64,000 bases of DNA from Candidatus Nomurabacteria bacterium (GTDB lineage Bacteria > Patescibacteriota > Saccharimonadia > Saccharimonadales > VXPC01): positions 613,854 through 677,853 of the forward strand of contig JACKGQ010000001.1 in the NCBI GenBank assembly GCA_020631905.1, given 5' to 3'. The position numbers were made by a program, and so were the translations under genes. A model generated the notes under the pieces. That model did no database searches. It had not been told where the DNA came from and saw only the letters and a program-made list of their open reading frames with translations. This document shows, piece by piece, positions 7,954 through 62,144 of the stretch (positions are counted from its first letter, which is position 1; each line of letters starts with the position of its first letter).

Positions 7954-8417
7954 GAAATGACCCTCTTTATGTCCTGTTTATCAAGTAGAACAGGACAAAG
8001 CCGAACTCCGCGCGGCGAGCGCGATGGAGATACGGCTTTGAACACGGTCAATAAACTCAACCAATATAAAAATAGGTAAAGAAACATAAGAAATAATCCT
8101 CATTTAGATAATGAAGAGAACCTTTACTTTGTGTCTTAATTTATTATGGTTCCTGTGTGTAAATAATTAAGGCACCAAAGCATAACAACTAGCCATCGTT
8201 GTCACCACTTTTTAGCTTTTATCAAACTTTATCAGCAAAAAGCTTAAGAAAATAAAGTATACGGTATTAACCGCATACCCTCCCATATCGGCTTATAGGA
8301 TTATATCATTAAGTTCTTTTATGTTATGTTTACAATAAGTAATATAAATAGTTAAACCATTTTACTGGTACTTTAGTATATTATTTGTTATAGATTTCAA
8401 TAAATGGTAAATGCAAA

Positions 8418-8849
8418 ATGTCAAAAGTGAGTAAAAAATATATATTGAAAAATGCAAGTGAAGCAGCACTTGCAGTATACATTGGTGTTCTTATACTTAA
8501 CATCTTGATTGTTTTTTCTAGGGTACATAAAGAACCTAGATTTGAACCAAACTCAGACTATTACTCATCTGTTGCGTCAATTATACCTCTGTTCTTGATA
8601 GCAATTTATCTGCCTAGAGGTTCATACTATTTACAATCTCGAAAAGTAATCGATATAATATCGGAACTAATTACTAGGATTTTACCAGCAATTTTAGCTA
8701 CAGGCGGATCTTTATATGCGCTAGCTAATAAAACTGATAGTAATCTAATATTTTCATTTACAGTTATTGGGCTAACTCAATTGTCGACAACATTTATACT
8801 TCAAATAGTTTTTGAAGGAATATTAACAAAGGATACCGAGAACCATTAA
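8418..8849 (+). CDS. hypothetical membrane protein in AT-rich accessory stretch
   Basis: The 143-aa ORF has 4 hydrophobic helices. The surrounding DNA is about 27% GC in a hand-counted sample. Confidence 0.5.
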   Translation: MSKVSKKYILKNASEAALAVYIGVLILNILIVFSRVHKEPRFEPNSDYYSSVASIIPLFLIAIYLPRGSYYLQSRKVIDIISELITRILPAILATGGSLYALANKTDSNLIFSFTVIGLTQLSTTFILQIVFEGILTKDTENH

Positions 8850-9233
8850 TGCATGATCTGCTAAGCTCTCTATATGATGTAGTTTAAAGTTAACAGATAT
8901 GTTAATAAATCCCATAATAATAGGGCGGAATTGATTTACAAATTAGTGAATTAACACTTAACACTCTAAAATCAACTGCAAAATACGAATGTTATAATTA
9001 TACCATGTACAACATTATTAAATTTACAATGCTGCTCAAAAGTGTATTAGATGCACAGAGGGCATGTGTCTGATTATTGAAGGAAGGGACACAAATTGGC
9101 GAGTTGGGGGCGATCTTCGGATTGTTGATTGAAATGAAAGGCCTACAAATTACTGAAGCCAAACATAGACGTTATCTTGTCTGAGTGAGTTTCATGATTC
9201 AATTTATATTGAAATTGCGATAATTTTAGACAG

Positions 9234-35482: not shown

Positions 35483-36667
35483 TTATTTGTCAATCTTGGT
35501 TACCACACCAGCACCTACAGTTCGGCCACCTTCGCGAATAGCGAAATTTAGACCCTGATCCATAGCGATTGGTTGAAGTAACTTAACCTTAAAGGTTACA
35601 GTGTCACCAGGCATAACCATTTCTTTGTCGGCAGGTAGCTCGACTTCGCCAGTTACGTCGGTAGTTCTAAAGTAGAACTGTGGCTTATAACCTTTAAAGA
35701 ATGGTGTGTGACGTCCACCTTCTTCTTTAGTTAAGATGTAGACTTCGGCATCAAACTCGGTATGTGGAGTGATTGAACCTGGTTTGCATAGTACCTGACC
35801 TCGTTCGATATCTTCGCGTTCAACACCTCTTAGAAGTACACCAGCATTGTCGCCAGCCTTACCTTGGTCGAGGTTTTTCTTGAAAGCTTCGATACCGGTT
35901 ACAACTGTTTTCTGAGTTGGTCGAATACCAACAATTTCAACTTCGTCGTTGAGGTTTAGAACACCAGCTTCGATACGACCAGTAGCCACAGTACCACGGC
36001 CTTTAATCGAGAATACGTCTTCGATTGGCATTAGGAATGGCTTGTCTAGGTCGCGTACAGGTTCTGGAATGTAGTCATCCATAGCATGTACAAGCTCCAT
36101 GACTGCGTCCATAGCAGCTTCGTCGCCTTCGACAGCTTTTGTAGCTGAGCCCTTGATGATTGGGCAGTTTTCGTCGAAGTCATACTTAGCTAGCAGCTCA
36201 CGAACGTCCATTTCGACGATTTCTACGAGCTCTGGGTCGGCCAGGTCCATCTTGTTTAGGAAAACAAGAATGCTTGGCACACCAACTTGTTTGGCAAGTA
36301 GCACGTGTTCACGAGTCTGTGGCATAGGGCCATCTGCAGCTGACACAACCAGTACGGCGCCATCAATCTGGGCAGCACCAGTAATCATGTTTTTTACATA
36401 GTCAGCGTGACCAGGCATGTCGACGTGTGCATAGTGGCGCTTTTCGCTCTCGTACTCTTGGTGAGATGTAGCGATGGTTATACCACGAGCTTTTTCTTCT
36501 GGAGCATTGTCGATTTGATCGTATGCAACAGGTTTGTTAACAGCGCTAGGTAGTCGCTTAGAAAGCGTCATTGTGATTGCTGCTGTAAGGGTTGTCTTAC
36601 CATGGTCAACGTGTCCCATAGTACCGACGTTGACGTGAGGCTTAGACCTGTCAAAATTGTCTGCCAT
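35483..36667 (-). CDS. tuf: elongation factor Tu
   Basis: It carries [18 protein letters not shown] and NKMD motifs and is 394 aa long. Confidence 0.99.
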
Positions 36668-36764
36668 TTATTGGTTCCTTTCAAATGGTAGTTAATATTA
36701 TTGTTTCGCGATCCATATTGCACTTGAAGCACAAGAGCAAAGCCCTCACGCGAGTTACCGAAGT

Positions 36765-36793
36765 AGTATACAGAATATTTTTTGCGGCTTCAA
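36765..36793 (-). promoter_or_regulatory. sigma70-like promoter for tuf
   Basis: On the minus strand TTGAAG (36788-36793) is followed by 17 nt and TATACT (36765-36770). Confidence 0.55.
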
Positions 36794-36823
36794 GACCTAA
36801 TCTAGTTGAAATCTGGCAAGACA

Positions 36824-37465
36824 CTATTGAATCGTGAATAAATCAACTTCGAACGACCAGCCATCTCTTTTGCCAGTTAGGTTTACGGCACAATCAGCGC
36901 TCGAAACAGTTATCTTTTCAATGCCTACTGTTGCCGATTGGATCGCCGAACCTCCTAAAGACATCCAACCATGTGGATCTCTTTCTAAAGCTACTGGGTA
37001 GGCCGGAGTACAGCCATTATACTCGAGCACTGTGCCTTCGGTGGCTACTAAAACATCTCTTTGCCAACGTCTTTCATTAGTGTCAGTCACCACCTGTAAC
37101 ATGCCTCTTGCTGCTAGGCTTGTTAACTCAAGGTTCTTAACGAACAATCGATTTAGGGGTATAGCCAAATCGTGTCCTCGTAAATCTCTTTCTAGTGCTA
37201 ATTCTTCGACTAAAGTCGCCAACTCGCTCAGTTTTGATCCAAAGTTTACACCTATACCAATGCCTTCTTTGACTATCTGCCAGTTGATGCCATAGTTTAG
37301 ACTAATATAGCTTATTAGATCATACTGCGACATAGTTATTTGGGCTTCTCTAACTGCTCGAAGCACATTTATAGCCTGAACAGCCGACAAGTAATAGGCA
37401 TCTCCATATAATAACTTACCGTCTTGATCGCAAGCGTAAACTCTTTCTGGTGCAAATTGATTCAT
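36824..37465 (-). CDS. orphan hypothetical protein between fusA and tuf
   Basis: The ORF is 213 aa from the ATG at 37465, which has an AAGAGGT Shine-Dalgarno. The track's 225-aa version starts at 37501. No motif recognised. Confidence 0.65.
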   Translation of the reverse strand: MNQFAPERVYACDQDGKLLYGDAYYLSAVQAINVLRAVREAQITMSQYDLISYISLNYGINWQIVKEGIGIGVNFGSKLSELATLVEELALERDLRGHDLAIPLNRLFVKNLELTSLAARGMLQVVTDTNERRWQRDVLVATEGTVLEYNGCTPAYPVALERDPHGWMSLGGSAIQSATVGIEKITVSSADCAVNLTGKRDGWSFEVDLFTIQ

Positions 37466-37620
37466 CTTTAACCTCTTTCTTTTATGAGGTTCAAAGTGCA
37501 ATCGGGCAAAATCTAGGATGTTTGGACTACTTCAAACCTCTTTGGCAATAACTATTTCGGCTTGGTTTACTAGATCCACACAAAGCTTATCCTTTGTTTA
37601 ACTTACGATTATTTTATCAT

Positions 37621-37658
37621 AAAAAGAAAAAAGCCCCGGATCCTGGTTGGATCGGGGC
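37621..37658 (-). terminator. intrinsic terminator ending the noncoding unit downstream of fusA
   Basis: On the minus strand the stem GCCCCG(A)TCC / GGATC-CGGGGC has 10 bp, one bulge and a 5-nt loop. It is followed by TTTTTTCTTTTT. Confidence 0.8.
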
Positions 37659-38386
37659 ACCAGAGCTGGTATATCCAGTTGGATTTTAAAAGTGAGTTTG
37701 GTCGAGGGCTGCCTACCCCCGACCATCCGGTCTTGAGCTGCAGCTCGCAACGCACCACCGTTCGTCTCTGATTATCCAACGAGCTTGTCGTTTTCCAATT
37801 GTCAACGTTGATGGTTCACTTGCTGAAGTCACACGGTTTCACCAAGTTTTTCCGACCTCGGCTATTCGTCTTCAGACGGGTTCTATCTTGTCCTTCTCAC
37901 GCAATTTGGGTCGTCCGAACAACCACATTCTGCGTGCCGCTTCGCCAGCAGCGGTACGACATATTGCGATCCACACCAGATTCGGATCCAGTGCGGCGCA
38001 GAGGCATGACTACTTCCACGTTTTATACGTGTGCCTGACGGCAAGGTGAGCCCTAACCGAACAACATCTAGCGGCCTCACGCCAGATGCATCATTACACC
38101 AACATTCCGAGACAGACTTACACACCCATCCGTTAGGATGCGATTTTCAGACGGAACTTTTACCTCTGGCTCTAACAAACGAGGAGCAATCCGGACTGGT
38201 CTAGCCCTGGTCACAACTCGCCTGAGAGAACTTTTAGTGTCGGTGCTTGCCAAACACAGTGATGACCTGTCACTGTGCAGAGCGTAAAATGTTCTAGATT
38301 AACAAAATAGACCACTATACGCAATGCACAGTCTGGTTATACTGTGTTGATTGTTAAGTACGTTCAATCAATAAATCGATTGAACA
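37628..38386 (-). ncRNA. candidate large (~760 nt) structured noncoding RNA of unknown class
   Basis: The unit has its own TTGACT-17-TATAAT promoter and a strong terminator. No ORF over 80 aa occurs in any frame despite ~50% GC. Many local hairpins are present (e.g. CACAGTGA-7-TCACTGTG, GGTCGGGGG-7-CCCTCGACC, CACTGGAT-ccga-ATCTGGTG, CATCC-taac-GGATG). Confidence 0.5.
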
Positions 38387-38392
38387 AAAACT

Positions 38393-38421
38393 ATTATACA
38401 CTACCCCCGAGTATTAGTCAA
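38393..38421 (-). promoter_or_regulatory. near-consensus sigma70 promoter immediately after the fusA stop
   Basis: On the minus strand TTGACT (38416-38421) is followed by 17 nt and TATAAT (38393-38398), with TG directly upstream of the -10. Confidence 0.7.
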
Positions 38422-38423
38422 TA

Positions 38424-40514
38424 CTAATTTTTGCGTGAATTTTTAGCAACAATCGCTTCGGCAACATTGCCGGGGACCTCTTGGTAGTTGTGAAGTTCCA
38501 TGCTGCTAGCTGCGCGACCTTGAGTCATCGAACGTAAGTCGGTTGTGTAGCCAAACATTTCGGCAAGCGGCACATAGGCATCAACAACCTTGGCCCCAAA
38601 CCGGTCGTCCATGGCTTCGACACGACCACGACGGCTATTAATATCACCAATCACATCACCCATAAACTCTTCGGGTGTTACTACTTCGACTTTCATAATT
38701 GGTTCGAGCAAGATTGGATTGGCTAGTTTAGCCGCCGCCTGAAAGCCCATGCTACCGGCGATCTTAAAGGCCATTTCGCTCGAGTCGACTTCGTGGTAAG
38801 AACCATCGTAAAGAGTCGCCTTAATGTCGACCATTGGGTAGCCAGCAACTACACCACTAGTCATGGCTTCTTGCACACCGGCTTTAACTGCACTTATGTA
38901 TTCATTTGGAACTACACCGCCTTTGATGGCATCAACAAACTCAAAACCTGCACCAGCTTCTTGGGCATCGAGTCTTATCCAGACATCACCATATTGACCA
39001 CGCCCACCAGACTGACGGACGAACTTGCCTTGGGCTTCTGAACCACTCTTTTTGATAGTTTCACGGTAAGCAACCTGTGGCTGACCGATATTGGCCACCA
39101 CCCCAAACTCGCGTTTCATCCGATCGACCAGAATTTCTAGATGTAGCTCACCCATTCCACTTATAATTGTCTGGTTTGTTTCATCATCGACACTAACACG
39201 GAAAGTCGGATCTTCTTCGGCAAGTCGCTGCAAGGCATTACTCATTTTTTCTTGATCGGCTTTGGTAGCAGGCTCAATCGCAATACTTACAGGTGGTTCT
39301 GGGAACTCAATGCTTTCGAGTACAATTGTATGATTTACGTCTGTTAATGTGTTACCTGTAGTCGTGTTTTTTAAACCAACGATAGCCGCAATGTCGCCAG
39401 CCGTAACTTCTTCGAGATCTTCGCGTTTGTCGGCAAACATGCGTACGATACGGCCAACACGCTCTTTCTCGCCAGTAGCGTTATTGATTACATAACTGCC
39501 GCTCTTTAAGACACCAGAATAAACTCGCACAAATATCAATTTACCTACAAATGGGTCGGTGGCAATTTTAAAGGCTAGGCCGGCAAAAGGTTCGTCATCG
39601 CTCGGCTTGCGCTCGATCTCTTCGCCTGTTTTTGGGTGAGTACCCCAGTTTGAGCCACGATCGATCGGGCTTGGTAGGTAGTCGGTCATTAGGTCGAGGA
39701 CTTTTTCGACGATTACACCGCGGCCGTCACCACCAGTGGCAACATAAAACTGGCCACTCAAAGTAGCTGTACGGATAGCTTGTTTGATCTCGGCTTCGTT
39801 CAAGCCCTCTTCGCCTACTTCTAGGTAGCGTTCGAGCATGGCTTCGTCTTCGGCTACGGCATTTTCGATCAGTAAGCTACGATATTTTTTAGCCTCGTCG
39901 ACCATATCGGCAGGCACTTCGGCTTCGATAAGTTCTTTGTCGGCGAACTCCTTATAGGTATAAGCCTTCATAGTGATTAAATCGACCACACCGTTGATAC
40001 TTTGCTCAAAGCCAATAGGCAAATGAACAGGGAAAATTGCTTTGCTTAGACGTGCGTGCATGCTCTCAAGGCTTTTATAGAAATCACCACCAGTTTGGTT
40101 GATTTTGTTAATAAAACAGACTCGCGGTACGTTATATTTGTTCGCCTGTCTCCAAACTGTTTCTGTCTGAGCTTCGACACCCATTTTGCCATCAAATACA
40201 ACTACAGCACCATCTAGCACTCGCAACGAGCGCTCAACTTCGACTGTAAAGTCGATATGGCCTGGCGTATCGATAATGTTAATCTTCTTACCTTTCCAGT
40301 AGCAGGTGACCGCAGCCGAAGTAATCGTGATTCCACGTTCGCGTTCTTGCTCCATCCAGTCGGTAGTGGTTTCACCTTCGTGGACGGCACCAATCTTATG
40401 CTTTAAGCCTGTACGGTGCAAAATGCCTTCTGTAGTGGTGGTTTTACCGGCGTCGATATGGGCAATAATGCCAACGTTGCGGACGTCTTGGAGCTGATAT
40501 TTTTGTTGAGCCAT
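38424..40514 (-). CDS. fusA: elongation factor G
   Basis: It carries [20 protein letters not shown] and NKIN G-motifs and is 696 aa long. Confidence 0.99.
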
Positions 40515-40616: not shown

Positions 40617-41006
40617 TTAAGACTTAAAACCAGTTACAGGTCTACGGACAATCAAGCGCATATCATCGTTAAGGCTTTCTGTATCACCTATTGCCAGAGA
40701 AAGTATTCTACCGGTTGGCAGATTGCAGAATGTCCCATAACCTAACTCTGGTGGATTCGACTGATTCTGACGATTGCAGGTAGTGTTTTTGAGCCCGTTT
40801 AAAGATGTTTCGAGTTCGAGCATGAGTGCGTGTTTTCGCCGTGCTAGTGTTTCAGGAGAAAGCAACTGTTCGACTCTTTCAGATTCCTGAACTGCGATAG
40901 CTGCCTCGTAAACTTGAGGTAACTTACAACCAACACACGCTAATAACTTTATTTTAGTCAGAACATCGCGCATTGCTTTCGGAGTCGGTGCTTCACCTAT
41001 ATTCAT
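40617..41006 (-). CDS. orphan hypothetical protein between rpsG and fusA
   Basis: The 129-aa ORF is preceded by TTGCTA-18-TATATT only 8 nt from the ATG (near-leaderless), with no Shine-Dalgarno. No motif recognised. Confidence 0.45.
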   Translation of the reverse strand: MNIGEAPTPKAMRDVLTKIKLLACVGCKLPQVYEAAIAVQESERVEQLLSPETLARRKHALMLELETSLNGLKNTTCNRQNQSNPPELGYGTFCNLPTGRILSLAIGDTESLNDDMRLIVRRPVTGFKS

Positions 41007-59873: not shown

Positions 59874-60734
59874 ATGACTCACCAAAAGAATTCTGAATCC
59901 CGCGCACTATACGCGCTCATGGTGGTCCTCTTGGTCTGCGTACTCATCTTGGGGCTTATTTCCGCCTTCGGCAGTCCTTGGAGTCAAGCTCAGCCAGCTG
60001 ACGACTATACGTCGTCCGAGTTGTACTCGTTGCAGGTTCAGCAGATCGCCGATCTCAAACAGCAGGTCGAAGACATGCAGCAGCAGATCTCCGAACTCCA
60101 GACCGAGCTCGATAGTACGGCGGTGGGCGTCTTCGACACGCCACCCAGTGACACAGTGGTCACCGCAACCACTATCGACCTCGACGCGGCTTCGCGCGAG
60201 GCATGCATCCACTACCGTGATGATCCGTTCTTTTTGGCCGACTTTTCCGAGGGCTTCGTCTTCGGAGGCGCCGAGTGCACCCCTGGCCACTTCTGGGGCG
60301 TGCTTTGGCCGGCCAACGACACCTATGTCATCACCACGCCCGAAGGGCTTAACTTCGACGATGGGTTTGCCAGTGTCGGGTTCGACGACAACTGGTACGG
60401 CATACCCGCCAGCCTGCGTCATCCGGCCTATGCAGACGCACTAACCCTGGAAGAGCTGACTCAGCTCCCACCAGGGACAATCATCTGCCGACGGACTGGC
60501 AACAACCCCGAACATGCCACAGAGCATGTCTTCTTCGAGGCAAGTCTAGTGGTCTACGAATACGACGGGTCACTTTATCCTCGCTGGACAGACAGTCAGG
60601 GTATGGCCTCGAGCTTGAGCTCGTGGAGCCTCGAAGATGACGGGGTGATCCCATACAGCAACTACACCGATACCGAATGGTACGGCGGCTGGAGTGGGAC
60701 TCGTCTGACACTGGGAAGGTGTAACGCGGTGTAA
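59874..60734 (+). CDS. hypothetical membrane-anchored protein, high GC (likely foreign origin)
   Basis: The 286-aa ORF has an N-terminal TM helix, a Gln-rich coiled coil (QVQQIADLKQQVEDMQQQISELQTELD) and a Trp/Gly/Asp-rich C-terminal domain. A hand-counted sample gives ~67% GC. Two hairpins follow (60741-60769 and 60766-60810). Confidence 0.7.
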   Translation: MTHQKNSESRALYALMVVLLVCVLILGLISAFGSPWSQAQPADDYTSSELYSLQVQQIADLKQQVEDMQQQISELQTELDSTAVGVFDTPPSDTVVTATTIDLDAASREACIHYRDDPFFLADFSEGFVFGGAECTPGHFWGVLWPANDTYVITTPEGLNFDDGFASVGFDDNWYGIPASLRHPAYADALTLEELTQLPPGTIICRRTGNNPEHATEHVFFEASLVVYEYDGSLYPRWTDSQGMASSLSSWSLEDDGVIPYSNYTDTEWYGGWSGTRLTLGRCNAV

Positions 60735-60924
60735 CCAATCAGAGACGAAGCATTCGTACGCTGTCGTCTCACCAGAGTTATCGACATATCGATACTTCTG
60801 GTGAGATTTACTTGAACAAGCAAACTAAAAAAGCTAAAATGCCCTAGCACTTTTTTAGTCTACTCCCCAATTTTTCAAACCATTAAATTTCTAATTTATG
60901 TTTGCAAAATTGAAAGGAATGGTT

Positions 60925-60994
60925 ATGGTCTGCCAAGCCTTGGATTTTGCTACTTGATTGCAAAATCCAGCGCTTGGCAGTCGCCATAGACCAT
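60925..60994. repeat. long imperfect inverted repeat (about 21-bp stem plus 5-bp outer stem) abutting tRNA-Leu
   Basis: The arm CTGCCAAGCCTTGGATTTTGC (60930-60950) pairs with GCAAAATCCAGCGCTTGGCAG (60960-80), and ATGGT (60925-29) pairs with ACCAT (60990-94). Confidence 0.7.
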
Positions 60995-60997
60995 GAC

Positions 60998-61082
60998 GCG
61001 GATGTGGTGGAATTGGTAGACACGCTAGCCTTAGGAGCTAGTGCCGCAAGGCGTGAAGGTTCAAGTCCTTTCATCCGCACCA
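60998..61082 (+). tRNA. tRNA-Leu (anticodon TAG)
   Basis: This is a type II tRNA. The acceptor is GCGGATG/CATCCGC, the anticodon arm is CTAGC-CTTAGGA-GCTAG, the variable arm is long, the T-loop is TTCAAGT and CCA is encoded. Confidence 0.93.
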
Positions 61083-61245
61083 AACTTATGACCGGCTATA
61101 TGCCGGTTTTAAGTTTGATTAGGGTTAAAGATTTGATGAAAACCCTAAGCCGCGAAGGTTAGAAATGCCTGTGGGATTTCGCAAGAGAACCTTTCAGGTT
61201 CAAACTTGTTTGATGCATGAAAGTTCTGGGCCCGCAGAATGTGGG

Positions 61246-61259
61246 CAAGTCCTTTCATC
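61246..61259 (+). pseudogene. 14-nt remnant identical to the T-arm/acceptor 3' part of tRNA-Leu(TAG)
   Basis: caagtcctttcatc repeats 61062-61075. The surrounding sequence (gtgggCAAGTCCTTTCATCatcatca) looks like a decayed tRNA 3' end. Confidence 0.45.
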
Positions 61260-61364
61260 ATCATCAACTTGAACACCAGTTGATAAAACTTGATATTGAT
61301 TTGGCTTTAGTCAAAAAAAATCTAAAGTTCACAATATGTCACACCGGTAGTATATTTAGAGAAT

Positions 61365-61450
61365 GCGGATGTGGCGAAATGGCAGACGCGCTAGCTTCAG
61401 GTGCTAGTGTACGCAAGTACGTGGAGGTTCAAGTCCTCTCATCCGCACCA
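61365..61450 (+). tRNA. tRNA-Leu (anticodon CAG)
   Basis: It has the same acceptor, GCGGATG/CATCCGC. The anticodon arm is CTAGC-TTCAGGT-GCTAG, the variable arm is long and CCA is encoded. Confidence 0.93.
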
Positions 61451-62059: not shown

Positions 62060-62144
62060 AATAATGTGCTTTCTTGTTATTGTATGCTTGACACTATATA
62101 GTAACTAAAATATAATGTCAATATGACACTAAGTAAGGATTATC

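Follow-up and report, generated by a model that had tools for sequence, protein, structure and literature searches.

A candidate stand-alone, GC-rich noncoding RNA gene between fusA and tuf in a Saccharibacteria species

The locus lies within the window, by which we mean the whole 64-kb stretch of DNA that was analysed. Read along the minus strand, fusA is followed by the candidate interval, by an orphan gene and by tuf. The products of fusA and tuf were confirmed by Pfam as EF-G and EF-Tu, and the orphan protein is identical to the NCBI hypothetical protein KC878_01000 [Candidatus Saccharibacteria bacterium]. The source organism is uncultured. Between fusA and the orphan gene the gene callers of the source assemblies called no gene within the unit described here. 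The features of the locus are as follows.

38424-40514, minus strand: fusA
38393..38421, minus strand: sigma-70-type promoter TTGACT-17-TATAAT, agreeing with the consensus at 11/12 positions
37621..38386, minus strand: predicted noncoding transcript of ~766 nt, its ends deduced from the promoter and the terminator
37621..37658, minus strand: intrinsic terminator with the stem GCCCCGAUCC/GGAUCCGGGGC at 37658-37633, which has a one-base bulge and a pairing probability of 1.00
37570..37580, minus strand: orphan upstream motif TGTGGATCTAG, outside the unit and marking the downstream limit of the insertion
36824..37465, minus strand: orphan gene of 213 aa with native-like codon usage (0.12-0.25 log-odds)
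35483-36667, minus strand: tuf

The initial annotation of this stretch had described a self-contained transcription unit that begins with a near-perfect promoter just past the fusA stop codon and ends about 760 nt later in a strong intrinsic terminator. Both signals are present. The −35 hexamer begins 2 nt downstream of the fusA stop codon (TAG, 38426-38424), and the promoter occupies 38421-38393. Sites that match TTGACA-17-TATAAT with at most one mismatch occur four times in the 64 kb, compared with 0.43 expected from shuffled sequence, and no shuffle gave four. The putative transcript start was placed ~7 nt past the −10 hexamer. At the other end, the terminator (37658-37621) has a GC stem of 9-10 bp with a folding energy of −18.1 kcal/mol, directly followed by the U-tract UUUUUUCUUUUU at 37632-37621. 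A consensus terminator scanner overlooked this stem, probably owing to the bulge. No other terminator-like site was found on the minus strand from the fusA stop codon to 37658, and no promoter with at least 9/12 matches was found on the same strand between the terminator and the start codon of the orphan gene. As fusA has no terminator of its own, read-through from the str operon would also stop at the 37658-37621 terminator, and the RNA would exist in two forms, the primary transcript and the fusA 3′ UTR. Promoter and intrinsic terminator both belong to the interval and enclose no ORF, which is what is generically expected of an ncRNA gene.

The interval is truly noncoding. Its GC content is 49% for the 766 nt as a whole and rises to 52-53% in the core, compared with 43.6% in coding sequence and 41% in the other intergenic regions, and it is the highest-GC intergenic region among those longer than 600 nt. 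The GC enrichment reported earlier is thereby borne out. The longest ORFs with a start codon measure 79-80 aa. Thus, the earlier statement that no frame is open for more than ~80 codons is correct for ORFs with a start codon, but not for stop-free stretches, one of which extends over 117 codons on the plus strand. A codon log-odds model, for which 36 long genes of the window served as the training set, was applied to the six frames of 37621-38421, and all six resembled the off-frame and antisense null. The best 50-codon window scored 0.18; in-frame sequence averaged 0.26, and the 99th percentile of off-frame sequence was 0.21. Stop codons number 9-21 per frame over ~290 codons. With TGA, TAG or TAA reassigned, the transcribed strand still had no frame open over the whole unit, and small ORFs of at least 10 codons preceded by a Shine-Dalgarno-like motif were not found.

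Comparisons at the protein level gave the same picture. Six-frame pieces of the interval had no match in Pfam, and when 5,823 ORFs of related loci were compared with it by tblastn, chance matches alone were returned. The 16 stop-free pieces of at least 37 aa, searched as a concatenate against 5.8 billion proteins (8000 word-sharing candidates), had no match at E ≤ 10. A recently decayed protein-coding pseudogene had been named among the outcomes that would refute the proposed RNA, and with Pfam, tblastn and the 5.8 billion proteins we saw neither protein similarity nor any residual codon bias. An old decayed orphan gene could escape these tests.

The 766-nt transcript is predicted to fold with a minimum free energy (MFE) of −283.3 kcal/mol, corresponding to z = −5.2 relative to 20 shuffles and −5.8 relative to 16 shuffles. 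Forty other 766-nt windows on the same strand had a mean z of −1.1 (sd 1.3, minimum −4.3), which leaves the candidate as the most extreme of the 41. When MFE was regressed on GC over 166 windows, the minus strand of the unit came second (z = −2.9), and only a tRNA-containing region near 60.5 kb had a stronger GC-corrected fold; the plus strand of the unit gave z = −1.4. Relative to its own shuffles the plus strand has a z as strong as that of the minus strand, and the MFE difference between the two strands is unremarkable compared with the genome (z −1.6). Strand asymmetry of the MFE is therefore weak evidence of orientation. The excess of G-U over A-C (34 vs 2) was rejected as strand evidence, as it is biased by the choice of pairs in the MFE structure.

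The partition function gives 165 pairs at P > 0.7, almost all of them within local hairpins. Long-range pairs are poorly supported and multi-helix junctions have no support, and what is predicted is one local hairpin after another, not an “ornate” structure. The six helices quoted in the initial annotation are all in the sequence. The main structural elements, from the 5′ end of the predicted RNA, are listed below.

38362..38385, minus strand: 5′ hairpin of 9-10 bp, GUUCAAUCG(A)/(U)UGAUUGAAC, at +2 to +25, pairing probability 0.99
38254..38347, minus strand: AU-rich imperfect hairpin with ~32 confident pairs (34 when folded alone), an inverted repeat at the DNA level
37699..38245, minus strand: GC-rich core, 52-53% GC, with six confident hairpins (pairing probabilities 0.83-0.98)
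38169-38231, minus strand: core hairpin of 24 bp including 6 G-U, from the partition function
38121-38142, 38064-38089, 37965-38000, 37899-37935 and 37699-37725, minus strand: five further core hairpins, from the partition function

The 5′ hairpin (−10.7 kcal/mol, z −4.2) is equally stable on both strands. Its role could be stabilisation of the 5′ end; since it is a DNA palindrome directly after the −10 hexamer, it might equally be an operator. The AU-rich hairpin at 38254-38347 is also similar on the two strands (−38.6 vs −40.2 kcal/mol) and contains 1 G-U pair. Each of the core hairpins is 3-14 kcal/mol stabler on the minus strand than on the plus strand, because of a total of 17 G-U pairs. 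With its long imperfect hairpins in a row, the modelled structure hints at neither a catalytic nor an “ornate” fold.

The initial annotation had matched the interval to no known consensus, and this was confirmed with covariance models. A cmscan of the whole window against Rfam 15 at gathering thresholds detected six tRNAs elsewhere and nothing else. With the cutoff relaxed to E ≤ 10, region 37400-38500 gave five chance-level matches, to unrelated small families only. The best of these was Spot_42, which scored 20.5 bits on the terminator against a gathering score of 80. ARAGORN detected no tRNA and no tmRNA in 36500-38600. As there is no Rfam match, OLE, GOLLD, ROOL, raiA and HEARO are excluded as far as covariance models see, and so are, within the same reach, RNase P, tmRNA, 6S, SRP, rRNA fragments and group I/II introns. 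RNase P had been considered on account of the motifs GAGGUAAAAGUUCC and AGAACCCGUCU, seen by eye, and was rejected, as the P4 pairing is unable to form and Rfam gives no match. A housekeeping RNA was rejected because the locus of the unit is empty in relatives at 83-92% EF-G identity. TRF (minimum score 30) found no tandem array in the unit, and its direct repeats are chance-level pairs of 10-28 nt; with no tandem repeats, a type III antitoxin RNA was rejected as well. Two apparent links between the unit and the tuf leader, the common 8-mer GCGUGAGG and a complementarity of 12 nt, both lie at chance expectation and were discarded.

Searches for further copies of the unit covered several collections. 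Blastn and nhmmer (including --max) against 80 GTDB fusA loci and 13 loci of closer relatives, and blastn and nhmmer against 129 metagenome and viral loci, gave chance matches only. A distant blastn search of phage and plasmid records gave no match, and exact scans with three 20-25-mers in viral contigs and with one 20-mer in metagenome contigs retrieved nothing. A hairpin pattern with a free loop had at least 120 metagenome and 9 viral matches, all of which were unrelated GC hairpins according to nhmmer. A second copy within the 64-kb window was not found. The sole other copies are 99.7-100% identical and come from four independent contigs from other samples (L088-L091) with the same junctions, two of the four covering fusA, the unit, the orphan gene and tuf. 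As unit and junctions recur in this way, the interval is not an assembly artefact. In the literature on Saccharibacteria and Patescibacteria we found no description of such an RNA. The conservation and covariation that the initial annotation proposed to look for in homologous intergenic regions of relatives did not materialise, as no such region was found among the loci searched. With no homologue in the searched collections there is no evidence of conservation, covariation or purifying selection, and structure and function are not inferable by comparison.

To survey the gap between fusA and tuf, one genome per GTDB species was scanned, which yielded the 80 fusA loci, with EF-G identities of up to 78%. 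Their gaps range from ~110 to 3200 nt. Those longer than 400 nt contain forward-strand ORFs that differ among species, with a GC content at or below the genome average. Closer relatives were reached via the protein database and then their contigs. None of the eight close-relative species examined, whose EF-G is 83-92% identical, has the unit, and five of the eight lack the orphan gene as well:

L081, EF-G 92%: fusA, then 228 nt to tuf; no RNA unit, no orphan gene
L084, EF-G 88%: fusA, then 159 nt to tuf; no RNA unit, no orphan gene
L085, EF-G 85%: fusA, then 212 nt to tuf; no RNA unit, no orphan gene
L226, EF-G 85%: fusA, then 181 nt to tuf; no RNA unit, no orphan gene
L229, EF-G 83%: fusA, then 148 nt to the next gene; no RNA unit, no orphan gene

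The promoter and leader of tuf are near-identical between the window and these relatives, and the conservation of the leader sets the upstream limit of tuf's own region at ~36795. As the unit is missing in the close relatives examined, it is young or dispensable. Judged by these sequence comparisons, it is a discrete, species-specific promoter-to-terminator insertion of ~805 nt between the fusA stop codon and the orphan upstream region, with the promoter at one edge and ~40 nt beyond the terminator at the other. A search for target-site duplications or terminal inverted repeats flanking the insertion turned up chance-level repeats only. Better supported are two more general conclusions, namely that the fusA-tuf gap is, in Saccharibacteria, a hot spot at which fast-evolving accessory genes insert and that a conserved leader motif, separate from the unit, lies upstream of tuf. 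As the gap is variable and filled by different small genes in different species, position tells little about function, and the location inside the str operon, taken earlier as a hint of function, loses its force.

The orphan protein matches none of the families in Pfam, PHROGs, PADLOC and NCBIfam, and on the same negative result it was rejected as a type III toxin (ToxN/CptN/TenpN) or defence partner. Three distant homologues of 206-238 aa, with E about 1e-4, came out of a full HMMER search that covered 1.84 billion representatives. They have in common the N-terminal motif P-x-R-[VL]-x(3)-D-x-D-x(2)-[LM]-x-[FY]-G-D-x-Y-[WY]-L. One of the three, P0125, in GCA_964534605.1 (EF-G 84%), stands in the order fusA, 107 nt, homologue, 110-aa gene, tuf. 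Locus L228 (EF-G 84%) has a 251-aa member of the family (profile E = 1.8e-39) after fusA, a terminator and a spacer of ~190 nt. Two other species have genes of the family in this gap, and two further family genes lie in other contexts, all without the RNA unit. Between species with 84% identical EF-G the family is only ~25-30% identical. Upstream of the family genes in L092, L093 and L228 we found TGTGGATATAG, the counterpart of TGTGGATCTAG in the window. As this motif is kept at homologues that have no RNA, the orphan gene probably has its own control region. Judging from these loci, the orphan gene has been in the gap for longer and the RNA unit is an addition to it, and the gene is probably independent of the unit.

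Two of the four independent contigs (L088 and L089) have a nonsense allele of the orphan gene, GAG to TAG at codon 148 (window 37024); of the unit these contigs cover the 3′ ~340-370 nt, which show no change. With four SNPs in total, the contrast between orphan gene and unit lacks statistical meaning. AlphaFold models of the orphan protein reached a pLDDT of 38 from one sequence alone and 43 from an alignment of 4 sequences, which is too poor to read. Viral relatives of the family were not found. A C-terminal match of the orphan protein to a 2116-aa RTX protein is borderline and was set aside as probably spurious.

Taken together, these observations lead us to predict, with a probability of roughly one half, that the interval is an independently transcribed, stable and structured ncRNA gene that was recently acquired. 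This reading is supported by the rare 11/12 promoter, the strong terminator, the absence of coding signal, the extreme fold and the clean edges of the insertion; that the predicted RNA is transcribed and stable, acts in trans and has a role is what we infer. The base composition points the same way: the unit is GC-rich, and the genes that occupy the gap in relatives have a higher AT content than the genomes they lie in. In the sequence of events that we propose, the module entered the variable fusA-tuf gap of one Saccharibacteria species whole, from promoter to terminator. The near-consensus promoter would drive strong transcription of the unit, and the +2..+25 hairpin and the terminator hairpin would cap the ends of the RNA and protect it from exonucleases, the +2..+25 palindrome possibly serving as an operator too. 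The GC-rich core would provide a series of long, G-U-containing hairpins acting in trans, most plausibly as a scaffold that binds or sequesters protein or as a substrate of a double-strand-specific (RNase III-type) RNase. If real, the unit would be a large ncRNA without relatives in a bacterium that is ultra-small and host-dependent and in which each kilobase should earn its keep. It would also exemplify the acquisition of an RNA gene, in the form of a compact cassette, within the most conserved of the translation operons.

The same interval could instead be what is left of an orphan protein gene that was inserted and then died, or acquired junk, in which an old promoter and terminator were kept and the fold is incidental. 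Small fast-evolving orphan genes do come and go in this gap, and the one adjoining the unit is itself polymorphic for a nonsense mutation. At the ~25-30% identity of the orphan family, a decayed orphan would leave no detectable homology, and the absence of the unit from all close relatives examined fits this history as well. However, with no codon bias and 9-21 stops per frame the decay would have to be old, and yet the promoter and terminator are near-perfect. In addition, the GC content of the unit is above that of native genes, whereas that of the relatives' gap genes is below their genomes', the folding z is the most extreme among the windows tested, and ~800 nt of dead DNA would be unusual on a contig of ~0.77 Mb that is maybe most of the genome. 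We regard decay as unlikely, if well worth keeping in mind. A cis-acting role, in which the interval supplies the str operon (fusA) mRNA with a long structured 3′ UTR and a terminator, the orphan gene with an attenuating leader of ~0.9 kb, or both, would account for the lack of a fusA terminator before 37658 and of any minus-strand promoter of at least 9/12 matches between the terminator and the orphan start codon. The order promoter, ncRNA, terminator and gene also resembles that of attenuated operons and of type III toxin-antitoxin loci. Against this, 50-290 nt between fusA and the next gene suffices in relatives, the orphan gene keeps an upstream motif that is also seen at its RNA-less homologues, and a 3′ UTR needs no near-consensus promoter right past the fusA stop codon, so that we consider a purely cis-acting element rather improbable.

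Two further readings grant the RNA a function and go beyond an independent RNA gene. The initial annotation suggested that the RNA and the orphan protein form an RNP, and a type III-like toxin-antitoxin or defence module would be a functional pair of a similar kind. The two genes are neighbours on one strand and follow the order promoter, RNA, terminator and protein gene of type III loci. The proposal is weakened by several observations: the RNA has no tandem repeats, the orphan protein has no match in Pfam, PHROGs, PADLOC or NCBIfam and its models (pLDDT 38-43) are unreadable, genes of its family stand behind their own motif in other species and contexts without the RNA, and in two assemblies the nonsense allele lies beside an unchanged 3′ part of the unit. 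We hold such a pair to be very improbable. The annotation also proposed a candidate novel large ncRNA in the size range of OLE, GOLLD and ROOL. Taken furthest, the unit would be the founding member of a class of large structured RNAs in CPR bacteria, a horizontally mobile cassette of promoter, RNA and terminator with a trans function and a defined higher-order fold, on a par with GOLLD or ROOL. The class would so far have gone unseen because related copies have not been sampled or have diverged beyond the reach of exact-word searches. With no homologue, eight of eight relatives without the unit and no supported junctions, we find this doubtful. Our preferred reading, a recently acquired and independently transcribed RNA gene, makes the unit a new candidate for a stand-alone large bacterial ncRNA that belongs to no known family.

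Among known systems, type III toxin-antitoxin loci (ToxIN, CptIN, TenpIN) are similar in the order of their elements, a promoter, an ncRNA, an intrinsic terminator and a gene for a protein of ~200 aa. Their antitoxin RNA consists of tandem direct repeats of ~34-40 nt upstream of the terminator and the toxin gene. The unit and the orphan gene show the same element order, which for TenpIN has been described as promoter, ncRNA, terminator and protein gene (PMC12283969). They differ in that the unit contains no tandem repeats, the orphan protein has no ToxN-like or defence signature and its homologues occur without an RNA.

Type I 3′UTR-derived sRNAs with an internal promoter, e.g., DapZ and MicL, offer another comparison. 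In geometry the unit fits them: it lies directly 3′ of a coding sequence, has its own promoter at the end of that sequence and uses the same terminator, the only one there, as the upstream mRNA. It is, however, three to ten times longer (~760 nt) than typical examples, and its promoter lies after the upstream coding sequence and not within it.

What defines families of the OLE, GOLLD and ROOL type is a conserved architecture of several junctions, backed by covariation in a large number of genomes. The unit resembles these families, as well as raiA and HEARO, in being a GC-enriched, noncoding, stand-alone unit in the 600-800 nt range within a densely coded genome. It departs from all five in having no covariance-model match even at E ≤ 10, and from OLE, GOLLD and ROOL in being a singleton whose confident pairs lie in local hairpins. 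Like the unit, GOLLD and ROOL have a patchy distribution, and they are often found on mobile or phage DNA (PMC12286853, PMC5737381). In contrast, the unit has no adjacent tRNAs or phage genes and no match in the phage and viral collections; it is flanked by fusA, by the orphan gene, which has no PHROG match, and by tuf, so that the association of GOLLD and ROOL with phages and tRNAs is not seen here.

Long GC-rich intergenic regions in lower-GC genomes are enriched for structured ncRNAs (PMC8632094, PMC11109978, PMC8723152). The unit was found by the same logic as the GC-IGR and DIMPL candidates of the Breaker lab, namely as a long GC-rich intergenic region. Those pipelines accept a motif only once homologues show covariation, whereas the unit has no homologue in the searched collections. 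The GC-rich-IGR rationale is nevertheless the appropriate frame for it, and the label that a specialist would give it is that of an unnamed GC-rich IGR candidate.

The interval between fusA and tuf was compared between the window (36668-38423) and the loci L001-L025, L081-L093 and L226-L229. In Saccharibacteria its length varies between ~110 and ~3200 nt, with an ORF content that differs by species; the gap is a hot spot of variable small genes. The orphan gene (36824-37465, minus strand) belongs to a fast-evolving family found in the fusA-tuf gap of at least three species. The sequence TGTGGAT(A/C)TAG is seen upstream of the family gene in every such gap, the window copy lying at 37570-37580.

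The orphan gene also varies within the species. In two other same-species assemblies (L088 position 967, L089 position 941) codon 148, at 37024 of the window, is changed from GAG to TAG, which shortens the protein to 147 aa. L088 carries three more substitutions (37346, 37362 and 37363), each within the orphan ORF. The candidate structured RNA unit (37621-38421, minus strand) had no substitutions in either assembly over the part covered, which is only its 3′ ~340-370 nt.

Between rpsG and fusA the window holds two further ORFs, both with weak native codon scores:

40617-41006, minus strand, ORF of 129 aa
41059-41694, minus strand, ORF of 211 aa

Relatives have a gene content unlike that of the window at this spot: a single 104-aa ORF in L081 (EF-G 92% identical), four genes including a methyltransferase in L226 (85%), and a 700-nt stretch without a called gene in L085 (85%). 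In this clade the str operon as a whole seems to tolerate insertions.

Elsewhere in the window, the top-ranked 766-nt segment for structure after GC correction was 60515-61280 (plus strand; z -5.5), especially 61100-61270. It contains hairpins 3′ of the gene at 59874-60734 and the first of two tRNA genes, the second lying just past it:

60998-61079, tRNA gene, 82 nt
61365-61447, tRNA gene, 83 nt

The stretch between them terminates in a T-arm-like GGGCAAGUCCUUUCAUC and looks like a degenerate tRNA copy. At 62088-62121 a perfect-consensus plus-strand promoter (TTGACA-17-TATAAT) precedes an ORF of more than 620 codons that extends past the window end, and is overlapped by a minus-strand promoter with one mismatch, giving a divergent pair. 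An AT-rich stretch of 1.28 kb (7954-9233, 32% GC) has a single ORF longer than 60 aa, of 143 aa at 8418-8849.

Directly 3′ of the tuf promoter we found a conserved motif in the 5′ leader:

36793-36765, minus strand, tuf promoter TTGAAG-17-TATACT
36700-36760, minus strand, conserved tuf 5′ leader motif

The motif did not match Rfam at E ≤ 10. Its layout is GUAACUCGCGUGAGGGCU, a variable hairpin of 20-35 nt, and AUAUGGAUCGCGAAA. Among seven species (the window and L006, L022, L081, L084, L085 and L093) the CUCGCG/CGCGA outer helix and the adjoining internal-loop sequences are unchanged, and the middle hairpin differs in length and sequence. L001 and L002 have a variant form, GUAACUCGUGUGAG. We consider the motif a candidate cis-regulatory leader of tuf, for which the comparative support is stronger than for the putative RNA unit.
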